Shown: in pieces, positions 644-41,806 of the stretch
Position numbering within the stretch: position 1 is the stretch's first letter
Layout: each line of letters starts with the position of its first letter
Assembly (NCBI GenBank): GCA_023920165.1
Contig: CP089276.1
Coordinates: 3,472,001 to 3,536,000 of the forward strand
Length of the DNA stretch: 64,000 bases
Direction: 5' to 3'
Source: Curvularia clavata
Taxonomy: Eukaryota
Translations under genes and position numbers: made by a program
Notes under the pieces: generated by a model
Databases searched by the model: none
Told to the model about the DNA's origin: nothing
The model's input: only the letters and a program-made list of their open reading frames with translations

Positions 644-2860
644 ATGTACATCATCCTGGGTGCGATTTTCGCACTCTTCCTGAGCTTCGCCCAAGCGAAG
701 CATGCATGGATCCGCGCTTATTACTTCTCGTCTGGCGACTGCAGTGGACCGCCCATCATGGGCAACGTAGATGTCCCGAGAGATGTCTGCGAAAGCCTAA
801 TATTTGGCGGTTCATCCATGAGGCTTACAGAGACTACCCTGGGAGACTGGACCCGAGAAATCAACGCTGGTGCTACTGGCTGCTACTTATATGCTTTCAC
901 CCAGTTAGGTTGCTATGAGAGGTATCTCGACCTCATTCTTGACCCGGCCGATGTCATGAACTTGTGTATTCCATCGAGAGATGCAAACGACCCCTTTTTC
1001 TCCCTATCGTTTACGTGCATCTATGGCGAGCCGCCCCGCCGCCGTCGGACATTGCCAGCAGCAGCGAACAGGACGACTAATGAGTTGAACATGACCAACC
1101 CCGATGTCGCGAGCGCTTACCTCCGTGGGAGAGCTCTCGTTGATGAACTTCGCAAATTCAACGGCACAACGAGGTTCAACAATAGCATTGCGTCTGGCCC
1201 TGCTCAGAATAGTTACAATGCCACCTCAATCACAATCAATTCCGGTAACAGCAGCATGGATGGCCCTGTTCAGAATATCAGTATCAGGTCTGTCAACCAT
1301 CAGGGGCCGGCTTTTATCAGCAGAGAACGCAATGCCAACTTGACACGCAAGGCCAACCACAGCAGTCCCGTCAGTGCCAGGTCCGTCAATTTCCACGGGC
1401 CAGCTTTAATCAACGGGAAGCCCAACTCCAACTATAGTCACAAGTTGACCGCTAGAGAGTCGGACGATGAGCCAAGCATTGCTAGTGGAATACTATACCT
1501 CAACTCTACGCACAATATCAACAACAGCAGGTCGGAAAGCCCTGTTGAGCCCATTGGTGCCCGCTCCGTCAACTACCATGGATCTGCTCTCATTGATGAA
1601 GAACCCAACTTAAACTCCAGCTGCGAGTATAAGGACAGCAAGCCTGGTGACCATGTCCAACTCGGTAACAATACCAATGGACACCACGAGCTAGCCGACG
1701 TGAATAGAGTCCCAATCACCAACGTAACACGTGCCCAGATCCATTCCGCGGGCACCCAAACCATTGATGATTCGAATAGGGACGTTGATTACTCTGAAGA
1801 CGACTCTGACTGGTCTGACGATGACTTCGATGCCAACAGGAATGAGTACGAGTCGTACAGAAACTCCACTTCACTCGACAAGCGCGACTCCATCAACCTT
1901 TTTTGGGAAGGGCCTACTAGGTCTCTTTGGATGTTGCACCCCTGGACCGGTAGTATTTTGTGCTATAAATGCTTTGCCAAGGCCGCCGACGACTTCGGAA
2001 ACTTCCAGTGCCGCTGGGGCTACAAAATCGCATACATGGGCGACTGCGGCGACAAGCCCCTAGCCCCTATCTACACCTCAACAATTACCGTACAGCCCGT
2101 TGTCACTGTGACCCCGCTACCAGGACAGCAATCGATCCAAAAGCGCTCGTGGCACATGCCCGTCCTCTTGTCAAACCCCTGGTACCCTGGCATCACCGTA
2201 TGCGCCCTTGCCGAATGGGAGGGCAGGAACAAGCGATGGAAGCAGTCGGTTAAGATTGAGGAAGTACACAAGAAGTTGTACAAGTGTGATAAGTCACCCA
2301 TTGCTCAGAACATTATGGTCTGGGCCCGTACAGAGACTTATACAGCGCCTGTCAAGACTGTCACCGCGACAGCCCAGCAGCTGGCCCAGACTATTATTAA
2401 GACTGTAATCATCACTCCAGAGGTAGCGCCTACCTGGTTCGAGTCTATTCTTGTGCCGACTCCATCAGTAGTACCTTCGAAGTCCACTCCTTCGGCCTCC
2501 GTATCTATACTAAGGGCATCGGACTTCAGGGATGTGACAACTGTGTTAGCCGCCGTAGCTGTACCGACTACCTCTGTTGGCACCGTTTCCCCGCCAATCG
2601 AACCTACGCCAGTCTCCAGTCTGCCCGTGATTTCGCACGTCGGGCCTGCGGGCTCTTTTACTAGCGCAAGTATTGGTTTCCGTCCCCCTGACAAGACTAC
2701 ATCAACAACTAGGGATTACTTTACTAGCACAACTGTTGGTGTCCGTCCCACTGACGTGACTGAGGCTACGCCTCAGCTTCAGCCGCGGCATAAGTACCTT
2801 GGTCCGACAGTCGGAGGCTTCAGCACGGTCATTATTTCCCGCAGCCGTGATACCCCTTGA
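644..2860 (+). CDS. Secreted multi-module protein (738 aa): signal peptide, Cys-rich N-domain, Asn-rich repeats, two KR-preceded Cys/Trp modules, S/T/P-rich tail
   Basis: Uninterrupted ORF with ATG in a good context (caatcATG). Hydrophobic N-terminus MYIILGAIFALFLSFAQA. RRRR, LDKR and IQKR basic sites and many N-x-S/T sequons. No family recognised. Confidence 0.8.
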   Translation: MYIILGAIFALFLSFAQAKHAWIRAYYFSSGDCSGPPIMGNVDVPRDVCESLIFGGSSMRLTETTLGDWTREINAGATGCYLYAFTQLGCYERYLDLILDPADVMNLCIPSRDANDPFFSLSFTCIYGEPPRRRRTLPAAANRTTNELNMTNPDVASAYLRGRALVDELRKFNGTTRFNNSIASGPAQNSYNATSITINSGNSSMDGPVQNISIRSVNHQGPAFISRERNANLTRKANHSSPVSARSVNFHGPALINGKPNSNYSHKLTARESDDEPSIASGILYLNSTHNINNSRSESPVEPIGARSVNYHGSALIDEEPNLNSSCEYKDSKPGDHVQLGNNTNGHHELADVNRVPITNVTRAQIHSAGTQTIDDSNRDVDYSEDDSDWSDDDFDANRNEYESYRNSTSLDKRDSINLFWEGPTRSLWMLHPWTGSILCYKCFAKAADDFGNFQCRWGYKIAYMGDCGDKPLAPIYTSTITVQPVVTVTPLPGQQSIQKRSWHMPVLLSNPWYPGITVCALAEWEGRNKRWKQSVKIEEVHKKLYKCDKSPIAQNIMVWARTETYTAPVKTVTATAQQLAQTIIKTVIITPEVAPTWFESILVPTPSVVPSKSTPSASVSILRASDFRDVTTVLAAVAVPTTSVGTVSPPIEPTPVSSLPVISHVGPAGSFTSASIGFRPPDKTTSTTRDYFTSTTVGVRPTDVTEATPQLQPRHKYLGPTVGGFSTVIISRSRDTP

Positions 2861-3010
2861 ATGTGAGGTGAAGGAAATGATTCGAACACAATAGCGCGGA
2901 ATGGGCGTATATTTGGGTAGCTAATATGTAACTGTTCGCTTTTGGTTCTTGTAGAGTAGTACGGGTAGTGATCGTGGGTGTTGTTGTCCATAGATTAATG
3001 CATTCATTTT

Positions 3011-4096
3011 TTATTTTTCTCCTCGTGCTTTGTTCCTTTCTCGCCGCCTCTCCCTTTCCGCCTTTCGCGCCTGATTGAAGCTGGGCGCAGCACCTTCTTC
3101 GACCAATTTTGCCTTCTCTAAACTCGTCTCGTCGATGTTGTCGAGCAGGAAACGGCCCATGTTACCACTCCTCCACTTTTGTATCATCCACAATGATGTC
3201 GCTTCGGTGTCTACAGACCCGCCTTTTCCTAGTCTTCCAGTCTTCTTGGCAATTTCAGAAAGAAGCTCAATGATTTCGTTGGTAGGCGGTGCATATTCAG
3301 AGTACAGCGTAGGCGATTGGAGATTGAGATGGTAGAGGAGATAGTCTGCGAGCATGACAGGCGGGATGATGGTGTCTTTTACAGAGCCACACAGGGCTAG
3401 TTTCATCATTGCCTCTGCGTCTGGCACATACGGAATGAACACTCCAGGTGTGTCGAGAAGATAGACACCTCCACCAACCCCTTGGAGTTTCTTTCTGGCT
3501 CCAACGTCGGCTGACTCCATGTCGTCCTCGCTCGGGATGATCTTGACGCCGCTACTGCTGACTTTTCGCGTAACACCAGGCTGAGCACCAGTAGCAGCGA
3601 CCTTGCCTTTACCAATGCCTTGGGCACGCAGAGCATTAAGAAGCGTGGATTTACCAACATTAGGCATGCCCACAACCATAACCCGATGGCCGACTAGCTT
3701 CCATCTCTTTTGCGCATGCTCTCTCAAGACATCTAATAGTTTCGTCACACTCTTTCGACCACTGGCCTCTCCTTCTGCATCTTTACCGTTCCTCACGAAC
3801 ATAGTCGTAGTCGGATGGTGCCATTTGGCAATGATTTGCTCATTTCGATTGTCGCGTGAGCCACCACCCAGGTCCCTTTTCGTGTAAACAATGATCCGCT
3901 CTTTACCCTCTAAAGCGCTTTCAAAGAGCGGATTGCGCGAGGTCAGTGGTACACGGTAGTCGCGGCACTCTATAACTAGATCGAGAGTGGCAAGCAAAGA
4001 TTTCATCTTTTGCAGCCCGGACTTGTGGTGGCCCAGAAAGTAGGACCTTGGCAGCGATGGGATCGGCGGGAATGCATGGCGAGGGATGAAGGACAT
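3011..4096 (-). CDS. MTG1: Mitochondrial GTPase 1 (RbgA/YlqF-type circularly permuted GTPase)
   Basis: G4 TKRD precedes G1 GMPNVGKS, G2 PGVT and G3 DTPG. N-terminal YFLGHH and DLVIECRDYRVPLTSRNP motifs. Confidence 0.93.
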   Translation of the reverse strand: MSFIPRHAFPPIPSLPRSYFLGHHKSGLQKMKSLLATLDLVIECRDYRVPLTSRNPLFESALEGKERIIVYTKRDLGGGSRDNRNEQIIAKWHHPTTTMFVRNGKDAEGEASGRKSVTKLLDVLREHAQKRWKLVGHRVMVVGMPNVGKSTLLNALRAQGIGKGKVAATGAQPGVTRKVSSSGVKIIPSEDDMESADVGARKKLQGVGGGVYLLDTPGVFIPYVPDAEAMMKLALCGSVKDTIIPPVMLADYLLYHLNLQSPTLYSEYAPPTNEIIELLSEIAKKTGRLGKGGSVDTEATSLWMIQKWRSGNMGRFLLDNIDETSLEKAKLVEEGAAPSFNQARKAERERRRERNKARGEK

Positions 4097-37235: not shown

Positions 37236-38924
37236 ATGGTGGCACTGGATTTTAGAGCAGTATATGCTCTCTTTCCCTTACTTTCGTTTCTTCATGTCTT
37301 GGTGTCTGCAGATGCGATCAACGACCTGGAGGCCAAGGGCCGACCTGCCCTGTATGCTGCGCTGGCAAATTCCACAACTTGCACCAAGGAAAAATTGCAG
37401 GTACGCCGGGAATGGTACGTTCTTTGCTTCTGTTTTTAACCTTGCGGTCTCTGCTTCTTTCCGGAGACTAACAGGATATCAAGGGGCGACCTGCCTGTTA
37501 GCGACAAACTCGCATACATTGCCGCAGTGAAATGCCTTATTAATAACAGACCATCCCAATATGATCGCAACCAGTACCCAGGTGCCAGATCCCGTTTTGA
37601 CGATTTCATTGTCGTTCACATGAAACAATCACAGTATATTCACGGCACTGGAAGTTTTCTCACTTGGCACCGCTACTTCACCGCTGCGTATGAACATGCG
37701 TTGAGAAAAGAATGTCACTACAATGGCACGCAACCGTACTGGCATTGGGGACGCTGGGCCGAGAGCCCACAGACGAGTCCGCTTTTCGATGGCAGCCCTA
37801 CGAGCATCGGTGGCCAGGGAGAGCATGTGCCGCATAATAGTACTCTCAACATAACAGGCGAAGGTGGCGGCTGTATTGCCAGTGGACCATTTAAGGACAT
37901 GAAGGTTAATCTTGGGTAAGTACCACCACATTCCATTTACCACCTAGAATATCACTTGGGTTATATGTATTCCAAACAGCTATTCTTCTATCAAGCTACG
38001 TTACTTGCCTTGCCTCACTAGGTGGATTCCCCAGCAACAATAGTACCGTAGTGGTTTGGCACTACGACTAGTACTGGGTTGCTCGCTAGGGGAGCGTCTT
38101 TCGGCCGTAGAACGACATACCCTTGATTCGATCCGAAGACAGACGTTGGGCAATGGAGGAACTGGCGAGCCGATGGCTTGATTAAAAAAATCAGCACCTT
38201 GAGAAACCGAAGTCTGATTAATCGAACACTGATTTGTTGCCCAATGTCAAAGAATTGCCCCCTATATGGCTCTTCCCTTTCTTTTTTTGTCTGGCGGGCT
38301 TGCACTATCCCAGCAAACTTTTTTGGAATGACAAACGAGCTGACGTATGTCACGCAGACCCGTCTCAATCACGCAGACCCCAGCCCCGGCACGGAACCCT
38401 CGCCCAGACGGATTTGGCTACAATCCTCGTTGTGTCAAGCGCGATATCACCAATATCCTCACTATGCGCTACGCAACAACTGACATGATTTATTCTCTCA
38501 TGACGAATTGTATGGATATCGGGTCTTTCCAAACCAAGATGCAGGGTCCAGAGGGTGTACATGGCGCAGGCCATTTTACCATCGCTGGAGATCCGGGAGG
38601 CGACTTTTACACCTCGCCCGGTGGTATGTCGAGTCCTTATAGCTATCATCGTTTAAGTATCAGCTGACAGATTGTGACACAGACGTGGGTTTCTGGTTTC
38701 ACCACTCAATGATAGACCGTGTGTATACAGGTTGGCAGGGCCTTGACTTTGCGCATAGGCAGCAAGTTATTGCGGGTGTGACGAGAATGAATGACCCAAA
38801 CAGCACCCTGTCGACTCTAGATGATATCATTGATCTGGAAGCGGTCAATATAGAAGGCAAGGCGTACAAGATCAGGGAGCTGGTCAGTACTGTCCAGGGG
38901 CCCTTTTGCTATACGTATGAGTGA
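37236..38924 (+). CDS. Secreted tyrosinase-like di-copper protein; exons 37236-37414, 37484-37915, 38358-38623, 38683-38924
   Basis: Signal peptide, RREW, CuA (VVH...IHGTGSFLTWHR), QPYWHW, YNPRCVKRD, CuB (GVHGAGH...SPGDVGFWFHHSMIDR). The three introns preserve frame. Confidence 0.92.
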
Positions 38925-38980
38925 AACAAGCGTATTTAGCATTGGTTGCGAGACCAATCATTCCAAAACAATCACTTTTA

Positions 38981-39800
38981 CTGGGAAAACACGTAATATT
39001 AGGCATGGTGGTCACAGAAGTCAAGAAAATGTCGCGAACAGTTTGGAGAAAGTAATTTATTGATTCTCGGTCCTCAGATTAGCTCTCCTGCTGTCCTCAG
39101 AAGGAACCTCAATGCCCCTTATTGATCAGTCTTTCGACCTCTCAACAGGCAGCAATCGGGTTCCTCAACTCGACTTTGGCTTTAATGCCCCAACAGGGAC
39201 ATCATCACTGGACCTTTTCTTGCAAAAATCAGAGTCCCACCTACCTGAGCACCAACTCGCAACCAGCTCGTACAGATACTACACCTACTGCACGGCCCCC
39301 CACACTTCCCATGCCTAAAAGGCAAGGGCGCTCAGATTGAAAACTACAATTAGGGTGTCATGAGCGAACATCGTCCTCCAAGCCTCGGGGCAAGGTAGCA
39401 CGGCGCTTCACCGAGAATACTTGTCCTCACCGCGGTGGACGAAATGGCCAGAGCGGTTACGCGAGGGCGAACCCGGTGTTTGCGAAATCACCCGTGACCT
39501 GTCGCTGTGCAATGACAGGTAAGGTGATATGGCAGCATCTAGTATGATGGCGCACTCCCTCCGCTTTCCGTTCTGTTGTCATGCAGTGAGACGCCGGGGG
39601 TGATTAGTCCTCGGCATCTCCTTGTGACGAAGGTTTGTCGTTCATTGGGATCTAACATGTCAGCTGTCCTTCAAAGGATAATAATAATAAGAAAAGCAAA
39701 ACTGGAAAAGCAAGACAGAAAGTAACGCCGGTATAGGGATAGGGGAAACCTACTCGCAACTCGGGTATTGTAGGCGGGTGTGAAGTGGTGAGAGAGAGTT
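38981..39800 (-). ncRNA. Putative spliced non-coding snoRNA host transcript; introns 39753-39652 and about 39244-38981; ends uncertain
   Basis: Intron 1 GTAGGT...pyrimidine tract...GCTGAC...TTAG. Intron 2 CAG|GTAGGT...CCTAAT...TTTTCCCAG. Longest complete ATG ORF seen in the middle exon is 41 aa. Confidence 0.6.
39069..39214 (-). ncRNA. Box C/D snoRNA (146 nt), target not identified
   Basis: Terminal stem GGTCC/GGACC flanks box C GTGATGA (39208-39202) and box D CTGA (39077-39074). Candidate D' TTGA and C' TGAGGA flank a long internal hairpin (GAGGAACC/GGTTCCTT, TGTTGA/TCAATA, GGTC-GAAA-GACT). Confidence 0.78.
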
Positions 39801-40650
39801 TGTGGGTCCAACGCGCCAAAACTTATTGGCAGCGCGCGATCACGAGATGACGCTAGCGGCATGGCATCACGTGACTTACACAGAGCAGCAACTGCAGCGG
39901 TGTCACCGCGCTAATGACGTCGGCTGCATTTCAAACGGCCTGTTATCCACAGCGAAGGTCAAATTACCTGAATCGGAAGCGAGATCTTGGCGGGCCTGCA
40001 ACCTCATAAAAGCAGTACTGCCCTCCACTCTACACAAGCGCCGTTTTCTCATACCCGGCGTTCCGTCCCACAACTACTGTTGATTGAAGTCGTGTGTCTG
40101 TTTGATTTTACCGTCTATTGCCGAAGTTTGCAGTAGAAGTTGCATCATGAACACGGGACTGAAGCTCGTGAAAGCTCGATGAAATTGGCTTTCGTTTGTT
40201 CAGTAAAACTTATTAAAACGAGGACACGTGCATCTAACATCATGGCCGCCTCTGCACCTCCATGTCGCCAGGCCACCTAAATTGGATGCCAGAACAATAC
40301 TCAACCCACTCCACTTGCTTTCATCGACAGCCTCTGAGTGCAACTGTGCAGAGACCTGTTAATTATGAGCGGAGACATTGTATGCACTTTGATGAATCCT
40401 TTTTTGTAAACTTTTGACTTGGTATATACTGCGTGCAGAGTAATACAAAATGCGCTAGGAAAAGATAAACAAGGCGCATGACCTTTTCCAGGCCATGTCC
40501 ACACAGCCAACTCCATCATCCAACAACACTGTACAATTCTGCCTGTCGATTTCCATCCCCAATTTCAGCGCATCCATCAACTTGTAGAATAGAGCGTTTC
40601 CAGGTACGGTGCCTTTTCTGGCCACTGAACTTCAGATATGAGCTCTTCCC

Positions 40651-41806
40651 TTAGAAACGGTCTCTTTGTCTGGCCCTGTAGACGGTGAAGCCCACGTATG
40701 CACCAGTCAGTGCAAGACCGAACAGCACAAACTTTACAAAGGTCCATGTCCAGCTTCCACCACTAGGTCTCTCACGACTCATAGACGACGCAGTCTTCTT
40801 GGTGCCAGTCTCTCCTGACGAAGGGCTTGCTCCAGGGTTCTTCTTGTAGAGGTTTGTGGACTTGACCCAAAGAATGTCGTGGTTGTCAGATAGCTCGCCG
40901 GTCTCGGCAGAGAAGCCTAGGTATGCGACAGGCGGGACTTTGAAGTTAGGAATTTCAAAGCACAGGGTCCATTCGTCTTCGGCCTTGTATTGGATTTCGA
41001 GGCGGAGGTACTGCTCCTGGAAGTAGGTGAGACGGGCTTTGGTTGCGACTTGGGAGTTGCGAATGCCGCGGGCCTAGTTTACTCGTTAGAATGTACAGAC
41101 TCCATAGGAAAGGAGAATTCGCACCGAGCAGCCAGCAAGCTCGTTGGCCTTGCCATCGTTATCCTTATCATATGCCGTGTTTCCATCACCGTTCATAGCC
41201 ATGATATAGGGGAATACAGTGCCTGGGCGGTTATTCTTATAGGTGTCGAAGAAGAGACCAAGACCCTCGAACTTGTCAGCGTGGCCGAAAACATTTCCTG
41301 GCTGCGCGCGCTGCTTGGTGAGCCAAAGGGCAAAGCCGTCGCCATATAGGTTTCCCTGTCCATGAATCTTGAACTCGAACAAAACCTCCCAGTTCGTGGC
41401 CGTTAGAGGGACTCTCGAAAACAGCCAGCCATCGCGCGAGGGCTTGTCCGAAGCAAGTCGAATGTACTTATCAGTCCGAATAATGGTGTCTCCGCCAAAG
41501 TCCCACCAGCGGCTTTGCATGTCCGAATCGAGGTATGGCTATAGCTAGCGTCAGAACAGGGTCCAGGGCTATCCGTATTGTGATCTAGTGGTGGATGCGG
41601 AAAGAGGCGACAACTTACAGGCTCGAGGCTGTGTGTCCGCAGCTATGTATTCATTAGCAACAGTAACTCCTCAACTTTGTGTAGTAACAACCTACCGCAA
41701 TGGCTTTGATATCAGGGTCTTCGATCAGCCCTCCAGACCGCGCCCAAACGCCTGTCCAGCTCCCCGCCAGCAAGCATAGGCTTGTCCATGGCCTCGCAAA
41801 CAACAT
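40651..41806 (-). CDS. L-type (legume-like) lectin membrane cargo receptor, VIP36/LMAN2-like; exons 41806-41696, 41642-41619 (24-nt microexon), 41538-41125, 41073-40651
   Basis: Signal peptide, LRTHSLEPPY, WDFGG, GDGFALWLT, GLGLFFDTYKN, YLGFSAETGELSDNHDI, a C-terminal TM helix and basic tail ...RQRDRF. Confidence 0.92.

Follow-up and report, generated by a model that had tools for sequence, protein, structure and literature searches.

What is transcribed from the space between a tyrosinase gene and a lectin gene of Curvularia clavata, and on which RNA would its product act? The question was raised by an earlier note, made from the sequence alone, on a window of 64,000 nucleotides (the whole stretch of DNA analysed; contig CP089276.1, positions 3,472,001 to 3,536,000, with coordinates given below as positions within the window). 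It was proposed there that this space hides a non-coding gene of the minus strand which is spliced, and that its second intron carries a box C/D RNA with no recognised target. The window is eukaryotic DNA with introns of the fungal type. The tyrosinase gene (PF00264) lies on the plus strand and ends at 38924, the gene for a legume-like lectin (PF03388) lies on the minus strand at 40654-41538, and neither of the two open reading frames in the gap between them matched Pfam. Homologous loci long enough to include the neighbours retain the order lectin > RNA gene < tyrosinase. The two most divergent homologues, L081 and L097, have a relative of the tyrosinase gene (at about 300-1600) that precedes the RNA gene and runs parallel to it instead of converging on it; judging from these arrangements, the linkage of the RNA gene with the tyrosinase is old and its order has been rearranged in these two.

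Contigs of the runs described below also bear on both neighbours. In the tyrosinase gene, contigs of runs X1 and X3 skip 60 bases at 38621-38682 (+) with one extra letter at the joint, which is probably an intron with its ends placed one base off by the aligner. A 1747-letter contig of X1 starts at 40056 (40056-40200 in plus-strand coordinates), a position consistent with the 3' end of the mRNA of the lectin gene, so that about 280 bases are left in which the RNA gene can have its promoter. The motif CGTGAT-N-GCGCG (39833-39844, minus strand), situated approximately 80-90 nt upstream of where exon 1 ends, aligns in most homologues and could belong to this promoter.

The RNA at the centre of the question spans 146 nt of the minus strand (39069-39214), where the covariance model R1 finds its sole hit in the window, with 158.7 bits. 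Its ends are joined by a terminal stem of 5 bp, GGUCC/GGACC (39214-39210 with 39073-39069). Within this short stem lie a C box of the RUGAUGA type near the 5' end (GUGAUGA, 39202-39208; UGAUGA invariant in 16 of 16 aligned sequences) and a CUGA D box near the 3' end (39074-39077), which together with internal D' and C' boxes that are conserved and change in concert place the molecule in the box C/D class. Box C is followed directly by hairpin 1 (39186-39201; 9 pairs, 4 changed on both sides, 95% of cells paired), by the D' guide AAAGCCAAAG (39174-39183), by the D' box UCGA (39170-39173; UUGA in L081 and L097), by a long irregular hairpin with a GAAA loop (39101-39166; 22 pairs, 9 changed on both sides), by the C' box UGAGGA (39094-39099; UGAGAA in L081 and L097) and by the D guide CAGCAGGAGAGCUAAU (39078-39093). 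The stretch of 150 nt that comprises the RNA and 4 flanking bases folds with -62.7 kcal/mol, compared with an average of -42.4 for shuffled sequences (z = -5.45; 0 of 200 shuffles as good). An AAUAAA present in the window 8 nt after the terminal stem (39056-39061) is not conserved in homologues.

The frame reported earlier, a C/D unit with a 5-bp terminal stem, C and D boxes and a long inner hairpin ending in GAAA, is thus present as described. As to the candidates for D' and C', the true boxes are UCGA at 39173-39170 and UGAGGA at 39099-39094, and a CUGA inside the long hairpin was ruled out as a box: at 39127 it reads CUAA in the RNA contigs of all three runs that cover it, and its column is variable among homologues. 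A suggested pairing of the two guides with each other (CCUGUUG/CAGCAGG) was abandoned, as it involves a strand of hairpin 1 that is not conserved in sequence. An RNA of this build would be expected to bind the usual C/D proteins at two places, the terminal C/D motif and the internal C'/D' motif, and AAAGCCAAAG before D' and CAGCAGGAGAGCUAAU before D would then act as two short single-stranded guides directing 2'-O-methylation, with hairpin 1 and the long hairpin serving as structural spacers.

Relatives of this RNA were sought in metagenomes with an 18-base pattern composed of 14 bases of the D guide and box D. The scan yielded 22 loci, 16 of which are homologues that possess a C box and the whole architecture upstream of the pattern; the other 6 are chance matches. 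The two groups were well separated by model R1, with 97.8-172.9 bits for the homologous loci vs 15-20.3 bits for the remainder. The alignment consists of 16 distinct sequences, L082 being identical to L085. Among the elements that the pattern did not force, the terminal stem, which varies only via G.U pairs, the C box, AAAGCCAAA followed by U(C/U)GA, and UGAG(G/A)A are all invariant. The D' guide was not part of the search pattern; its AAAGCCAAA is kept in 16 of 16, and the last G of the guide is A in L097. The D guide is likewise invariant in 16 of 16, a sample that is biased because the pattern itself fixed 14 of the guide's 16 bases. The C and D boxes are kept in 16 of 16.

Hairpin 1 and the long hairpin are variable in length and sequence among these homologues and yet still paired. 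Over 39 pairs, 93.8% of cells hold standard pairs and 14 pairs have changed on both sides. None of 500 shuffles reached the observed values on four of five measures, and 23 of 500 did on the fifth; controls in which the partner was slid along the alignment were at most 51.6% paired. The change of the second base of the D' box from C to U goes with that of the C' box from G to A in L081 and L097, converting C-G to U-A at columns 50/144.

Evidence for the host transcript came from the contigs of four runs (X1, X3, X10 and X18) from four studies, out of 24 runs listed; such contigs show presence only, not ends or levels. X10 is an oligo-dT metatranscriptome; for X1 and X3 the RNA origin is a guess, though both show the joint in the tyrosinase gene. 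A contig of X10 covers 39073-39651 and then continues at 39754-39778, its short side being only 25 letters long, and the 102 bases that it skips are bounded by GT..AG when read on the minus strand (CT..AC on the plus strand). In X18, a contig stops at 39651, and the 11 loose letters at its end are identical to the last 11 bases of exon 1. From the joint 39651/39754 and this loose end it follows that intron 1 (39652-39753, GTAGGT...TTAG) is removed and that transcription proceeds on the minus strand. As far as the RNA contigs reach, exon 1 occupies 39754-39778, with X10 extending to 39778 and X3 to 39773. The upstream region was aligned over 640 bases in 14 sequences, L077 being cut by a contig end and L092 unaligned there; the end of exon 1 is conserved together with the signals of intron 1, the donor, branch site and acceptor of which align in 12 of the 12 homologues having the stretch, and exon 2 is conserved in blocks.

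Both sets of intron signals announced for the minus strand were found in place, with GTAGGT at 39753-39748 and 39244-39239 and acceptor AGs at 39653-39652 and 38982-38981. The spliced non-coding gene was upheld by the joint of intron 1 in RNA and its conservation in homologues; the absence of a conserved reading frame is indicated by the lack of any Pfam match and by indels of many lengths among the homologues. Near the 3' side of the main RNA, the contigs end at 39044, 39053 and 39073, and the X1 contig has an Illumina adapter directly at 39044. Contigs of the four runs, which cannot show absence, provide no cover of 38870-39031. With these observations, the RNA in question is real, expressed and under selection, and an ordinary kind of molecule.

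It does not travel alone. A second box C/D-like unit, recognised in an alignment of 12 sequences, lies further upstream in the same transcript (39328-39433, minus strand). It possesses a GCGC/GCGC stem with one compensatory change, an unusual C box, UGAGGA, in 12 of 12, and a D box that reads CCGA, or CUGA in the window; D' and C' are separated by an internal stem. All 12 sequences share the same D guide, UAGUUUUCAAU, and the D' guide of the unit has decayed in the lineage of the window. The D guide matches 18S rRNA over 11 bp, one of them G.U, in four of four SSUs, a match equalled by 18 of 300 shuffled guides; the candidate 2'-O-methylation site in 18S is AUUGAAGACUA. In three loci the homologues of this unit gave sub-threshold hits to Rfam RF00329 (snoZ162, a plant C/D RNA) of 24.6-25.4 bits vs a gathering score of 45. 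The homologous stretch aligns over the whole of that model, having in common with it the C box UGAGGA and, before D, a run of UUUUCA, but the guide of snoZ162 differs from that of the second unit, and the main RNA itself gave no hit to it.

Exon 2 begins with a structured 5' domain (39547-39651, minus strand, from alignment and fold), in which UCCC pairs with GGGA around a covarying hairpin whose CUAAUCA loop is invariant; about 30 invariant nucleotides come next. Its layout is like that of a K-turn, with no canonical boxes and no match in Rfam. Pairing of this domain with helix 34 of 18S rRNA was considered using RNAduplex and rejected, since only implausible duplexes with long loops were obtained. 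The second C/D unit and this conserved domain, both missed in the earlier note, share the transcript of the main RNA. The gene would accordingly yield a multi-unit non-coding precursor of the minus strand, with transcription starting at about 39780, from which intron 1 is spliced out; what is left would carry, in order, the 5' domain, the C/D unit at 39433-39328 and, as the last unit, the RNA at 39214-39069.

Neither the main RNA nor its relatives correspond to a family of Rfam 15. At the gathering score, Rfam 15 gave no hits in the window and none in the 16 homologous loci. At loose E-values the main RNA retrieved only a chance match to HIV_PBS (15.8 bits, E = 7.6), and its homologues retrieved nothing at E-values up to 5; the comparison with Rfam that had been recommended thus left the RNA without a match. 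Neither guide occurs among the 55 C/D sequences of Neurospora crassa or in their listed duplexes (supplements 1 and 4 of PMC2780460). Rfam 15 and the N. crassa catalogue both lack the family, which may be contained in the tables of the fungal snoRNAome (PMC5824354). In general organisation the locus resembles the C/D clusters of N. crassa (Liu et al., 2009; PMC2780460) and Aspergillus fumigatus (PMC2377427) which, in the portions of these reports available, are presented as spliced non-coding hosts with short reading frames and several C/D units; the A. fumigatus clusters were compared by description and not by sequence. The same portion of the N. crassa report includes one exon-encoded C/D unit, and gives lengths of up to 212 nt for C/D RNAs, making the 146 nt found here comparable.

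Whether the main RNA is released from an intron, as was first proposed, is a separate matter. Most box C/D RNAs of filamentous fungi are released from introns, and the 30 nt to the donor and 88 nt to the acceptor that separate this RNA from the signals of the proposed intron 2 (38981-39244, minus strand) are ordinary distances for an intronic snoRNA. In the window the donor is complete, the branch site reads CTAAT and the acceptor CAG, and the accessible part of the N. crassa study reports 45 of 55 C/D snoRNAs to be intron-encoded (PMC2780460). Among homologues, a donor-like GTRNGY 30-55 nt upstream of the RNA occurs in 12 of 16 vs 6.7 expected from shuffled flanks, whereas a branch site with YAG downstream occurs in 6 of 15 vs 6.4 expected. 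Most homologues keep a GT(A/G)GGT-like motif, with a U-rich run after it, at a distance of 30-50 nt on the upstream side of the main RNA (39239-39244 in the window); this conserved motif could be a donor or another kind of processing signal. The GT is absent from three related homologues (L092, L094 and L095). Contigs of all four runs cross the donor at 39244 unspliced (X1, 39044-39754; X3, 39053-39773; X10; and X18, 39207-39445), and no 39245/38980 joint is listed among them, although contigs cannot show absence. RNA from which intron 1 has been removed and in which the proposed intron 2 is kept therefore exists, and a spliced form may coexist with it. Moreover, the space from the main RNA to the stop codon of the tyrosinase gene is only about 110-175 nt, leaving little room for a third exon, and the other C/D unit sits in an exon supported by contigs. 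The claim that both introns are used was accordingly sustained for the first, by its joint in RNA, and not for the second. The intronic position of the C/D RNA found no backing in contigs that are only unspliced and acceptor signals at the level of chance. The read-through contigs, the short space and the exonic position of the other unit favour release of the RNA from an unspliced precursor, and it is to this reading that we lean, with some reserve; excision from intron 2 of a UHG-like non-coding host is possible, but we would sooner bet against it.

Most C/D RNAs guide the methylation of rRNA. The rDNA against which the guides were compared was of fungal type and consisted of contaminants of prokaryote assemblies found by way of the ITS3 primer; it comprised complete SSU in four of the eight loci scanned, 5.8S, and LSU as far as position 2260 of the 3401 in the model. 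Contaminant contigs of this kind, or fragments of ITS amplicons, occur in many prokaryote assemblies and MAGs (L001-L059). Two of them, L003 and L025, are chimeric, with 5.8S joined to unrelated DNA, and L003 was for this reason discarded as a source of long LSU. Attempts to extend the sample by the motif of the sarcin-ricin loop yielded nothing in 15 rDNA-contaminated assemblies, three apparently chance matches, all in large contigs, in 401 genomes of one genus, and 14 loci in viral contigs, none of which was rDNA-like; PLSDB gave only two small 18S-like pieces.

In five whole rDNA loci with their spacers, the longest ungapped complementarity to the RNA was 11-12 bp, and none was in register with a conserved guide. 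When register was taken into account, the best match to rRNA of the D guide was 9 bp, which 54 of 300 shuffled guides equalled, and that of the D' guide was 7 bp, equalled by 193 of 300. The control, the guide of U14 from the N. crassa supplement, found 15 bp in 18S with 0 of 300 shuffles as good. An 11-bp match of the stretch next to box C with the 5' region of 25S was dismissed, falling within the non-conserved hairpin 1, as was another 11-bp match to 25S, in which the pairing of the D guide extends into box D. A third candidate, the D guide on the LSU piece of L027 (5 of 100 shuffles), comprises 11 pairs, 3 of them G.U, with 2 mismatches, and is not the best duplex in other LSU loci; it was also set aside. 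Within the window itself, the only target for the D guide was the guide's own complement. The statement that neither guide matches rRNA consequently holds for 18S, 5.8S and positions 1-2260 of 25S, where the U14 control succeeded. To call the RNA an orphan on this ground was too strong, however: both guides are strictly conserved, and targets are therefore expected to exist.

Three kinds of target may be considered in this light. An ordinary guide for rRNA methylation could have its site in the 3' third of 25S or in a lineage-specific segment of rRNA, the scan having ended at LSU model position 2260 with 2261-3401 outside its scope, and the 18S match of the second unit in the same transcript lends this some plausibility. 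Weighed against it are the empty results in 18S, 5.8S, the spacers and positions 1-2260 of 25S, and the duplexes of N. crassa (PMC2780460 supplements), including 20 sites counted in the 3' part of 26S, none of which uses either guide; we consider such a site unlikely. The length of the RNA, its extra hairpins and the failure to find a target would also suit a C/D RNA that does not methylate, be it a folding chaperone, a guide of acetylation like snR4 and snR45, or a true orphan, and snR4 is said to occur in some Pezizomycotina in the part of the literature available (PMC5824354). Yet each guide stands in the canonical register with respect to its box, D' or D, no single rRNA site is flanked by hits of both, the 11-bp complementarity with the 5' region of 25S resides in the unconserved hairpin 1, and the Rfam models of snR4 and snR45 gave no hit even at E-values up to 5 or 10. 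Two arms flanking one 18S cytidine, as in the snR4/snR45 type, were not seen, the SSU offering only 7-bp chance matches, and a non-methylating role is very improbable. The third kind, an snRNA, was already among the options of the earlier note and is now the leading idea and the best lead: the targets are probably not rRNA and would lie in the 5' part of U2 snRNA.

The pairing that suggests this is that of the D' guide. Nine of its 10 bases pair with UUUUGGCUU of stem-loop I of U2 snRNA in yeast, not in the host, in the sequence given in the part of PMC10630445 available, and in that yeast sequence the first G of UUGG lies opposite the fifth base upstream of D'. In human U2, 19Gm lies within UUGmG and is assigned to scaRNA9, as stated in the excerpt of PMC6412121; the D' guide would thus direct methylation of the equivalent of human U2 Gm19. 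The sole variant beside D', the G to A change in L097, still pairs with U. Against the assignment, the A at 39183, which does not vary among the homologues, would stand opposite another A in the U2 of yeast. The U2 motif had no matches in viral contigs. The predicted 16-base target of the D guide resembles the 5' end of yeast U2 in its layout (PMC10630445, as far as the available part shows). Am32 of Aspergillus U2 is reported, in the section of PMC2377427 available, to correspond to human Am30, a shift of +2 in numbering, and the length of the D-guide target would fit this shift.

Known guides of U2 provide the closest comparisons. ScaRNA9 (mgU2-19/30), the vertebrate guide to which U2 Gm19 and Am30 are assigned in the excerpts available, would be similar in being a C/D RNA with two guides, but only if the U2 idea holds. 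It differs in that no relation in sequence emerged from any Rfam scan, in that the second guide of the RNA described here is unmatched to the A30 region, and in its UG-rich stretch, described in the part of PMC6412121 available, of which none was seen here. With homology lacking, and a G19-type pairing of 9 bp as the only one possible, scaRNA9 serves as a working analogy and not as a statement of membership. N. crassa CD29 and A. fumigatus Afu-191 are fungal C/D RNAs predicted, in the accessible portions of their reports, to guide U2 Am31/Am32; these differ from the present RNA in both the U2 site and the guide sequence. Taken as a whole, a precursor of several units from which the main RNA would be trimmed as the last, with guides aimed at the 5' part of U2, is the account that we judge somewhat likely to be correct.

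A wider reading may be built on this account, namely that the locus is a conserved cluster of guides for the methylation of snRNAs in filamentous fungi, in which the main RNA clamps U2 and the second unit acts on U5 and U4; we advance it tentatively and think it rather unlikely in its full extent. The D guide would take nucleotides 1-16 of U2 and the D' guide the next 9, across the C'/D' motif, approximately 25 nt together. The core of the D' guide of the second unit, decayed in the window, would fit loop I of U5, and its D guide would fit U4, in sequence contexts which we take from short motifs presumed for the two snRNAs. The unit would then methylate the equivalents of human Um41 and Am65, the sites named for U5 and U4, respectively, in the part of PMC7960923 available. 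According to the same part of that review, Gm19 of U2 is essential for splicing, and no 2'-O-methylated residues are reported in U1, U4, U5 and U6 of budding yeast. Were the wider reading true, the absence of methyl groups from these four budding-yeast snRNAs would be a secondary loss.

For the family, the alignment A1 and the model R1 would permit the annotation of members of a group missing from Rfam 15, and the conserved 5' domain of the precursor represents a further unclassified structured RNA. Both the 2'-O-methyl groups of snRNAs and their guides are well mapped in vertebrates; for fungi the evidence amounts to a few predictions made from single sequences. A strictly conserved C/D RNA with two guides and with no target in the rRNA regions covered is a candidate for methylation of the 5' end of U2 in filamentous fungi, one that may be relevant to splicing and that shares its precursor with a second C/D unit.
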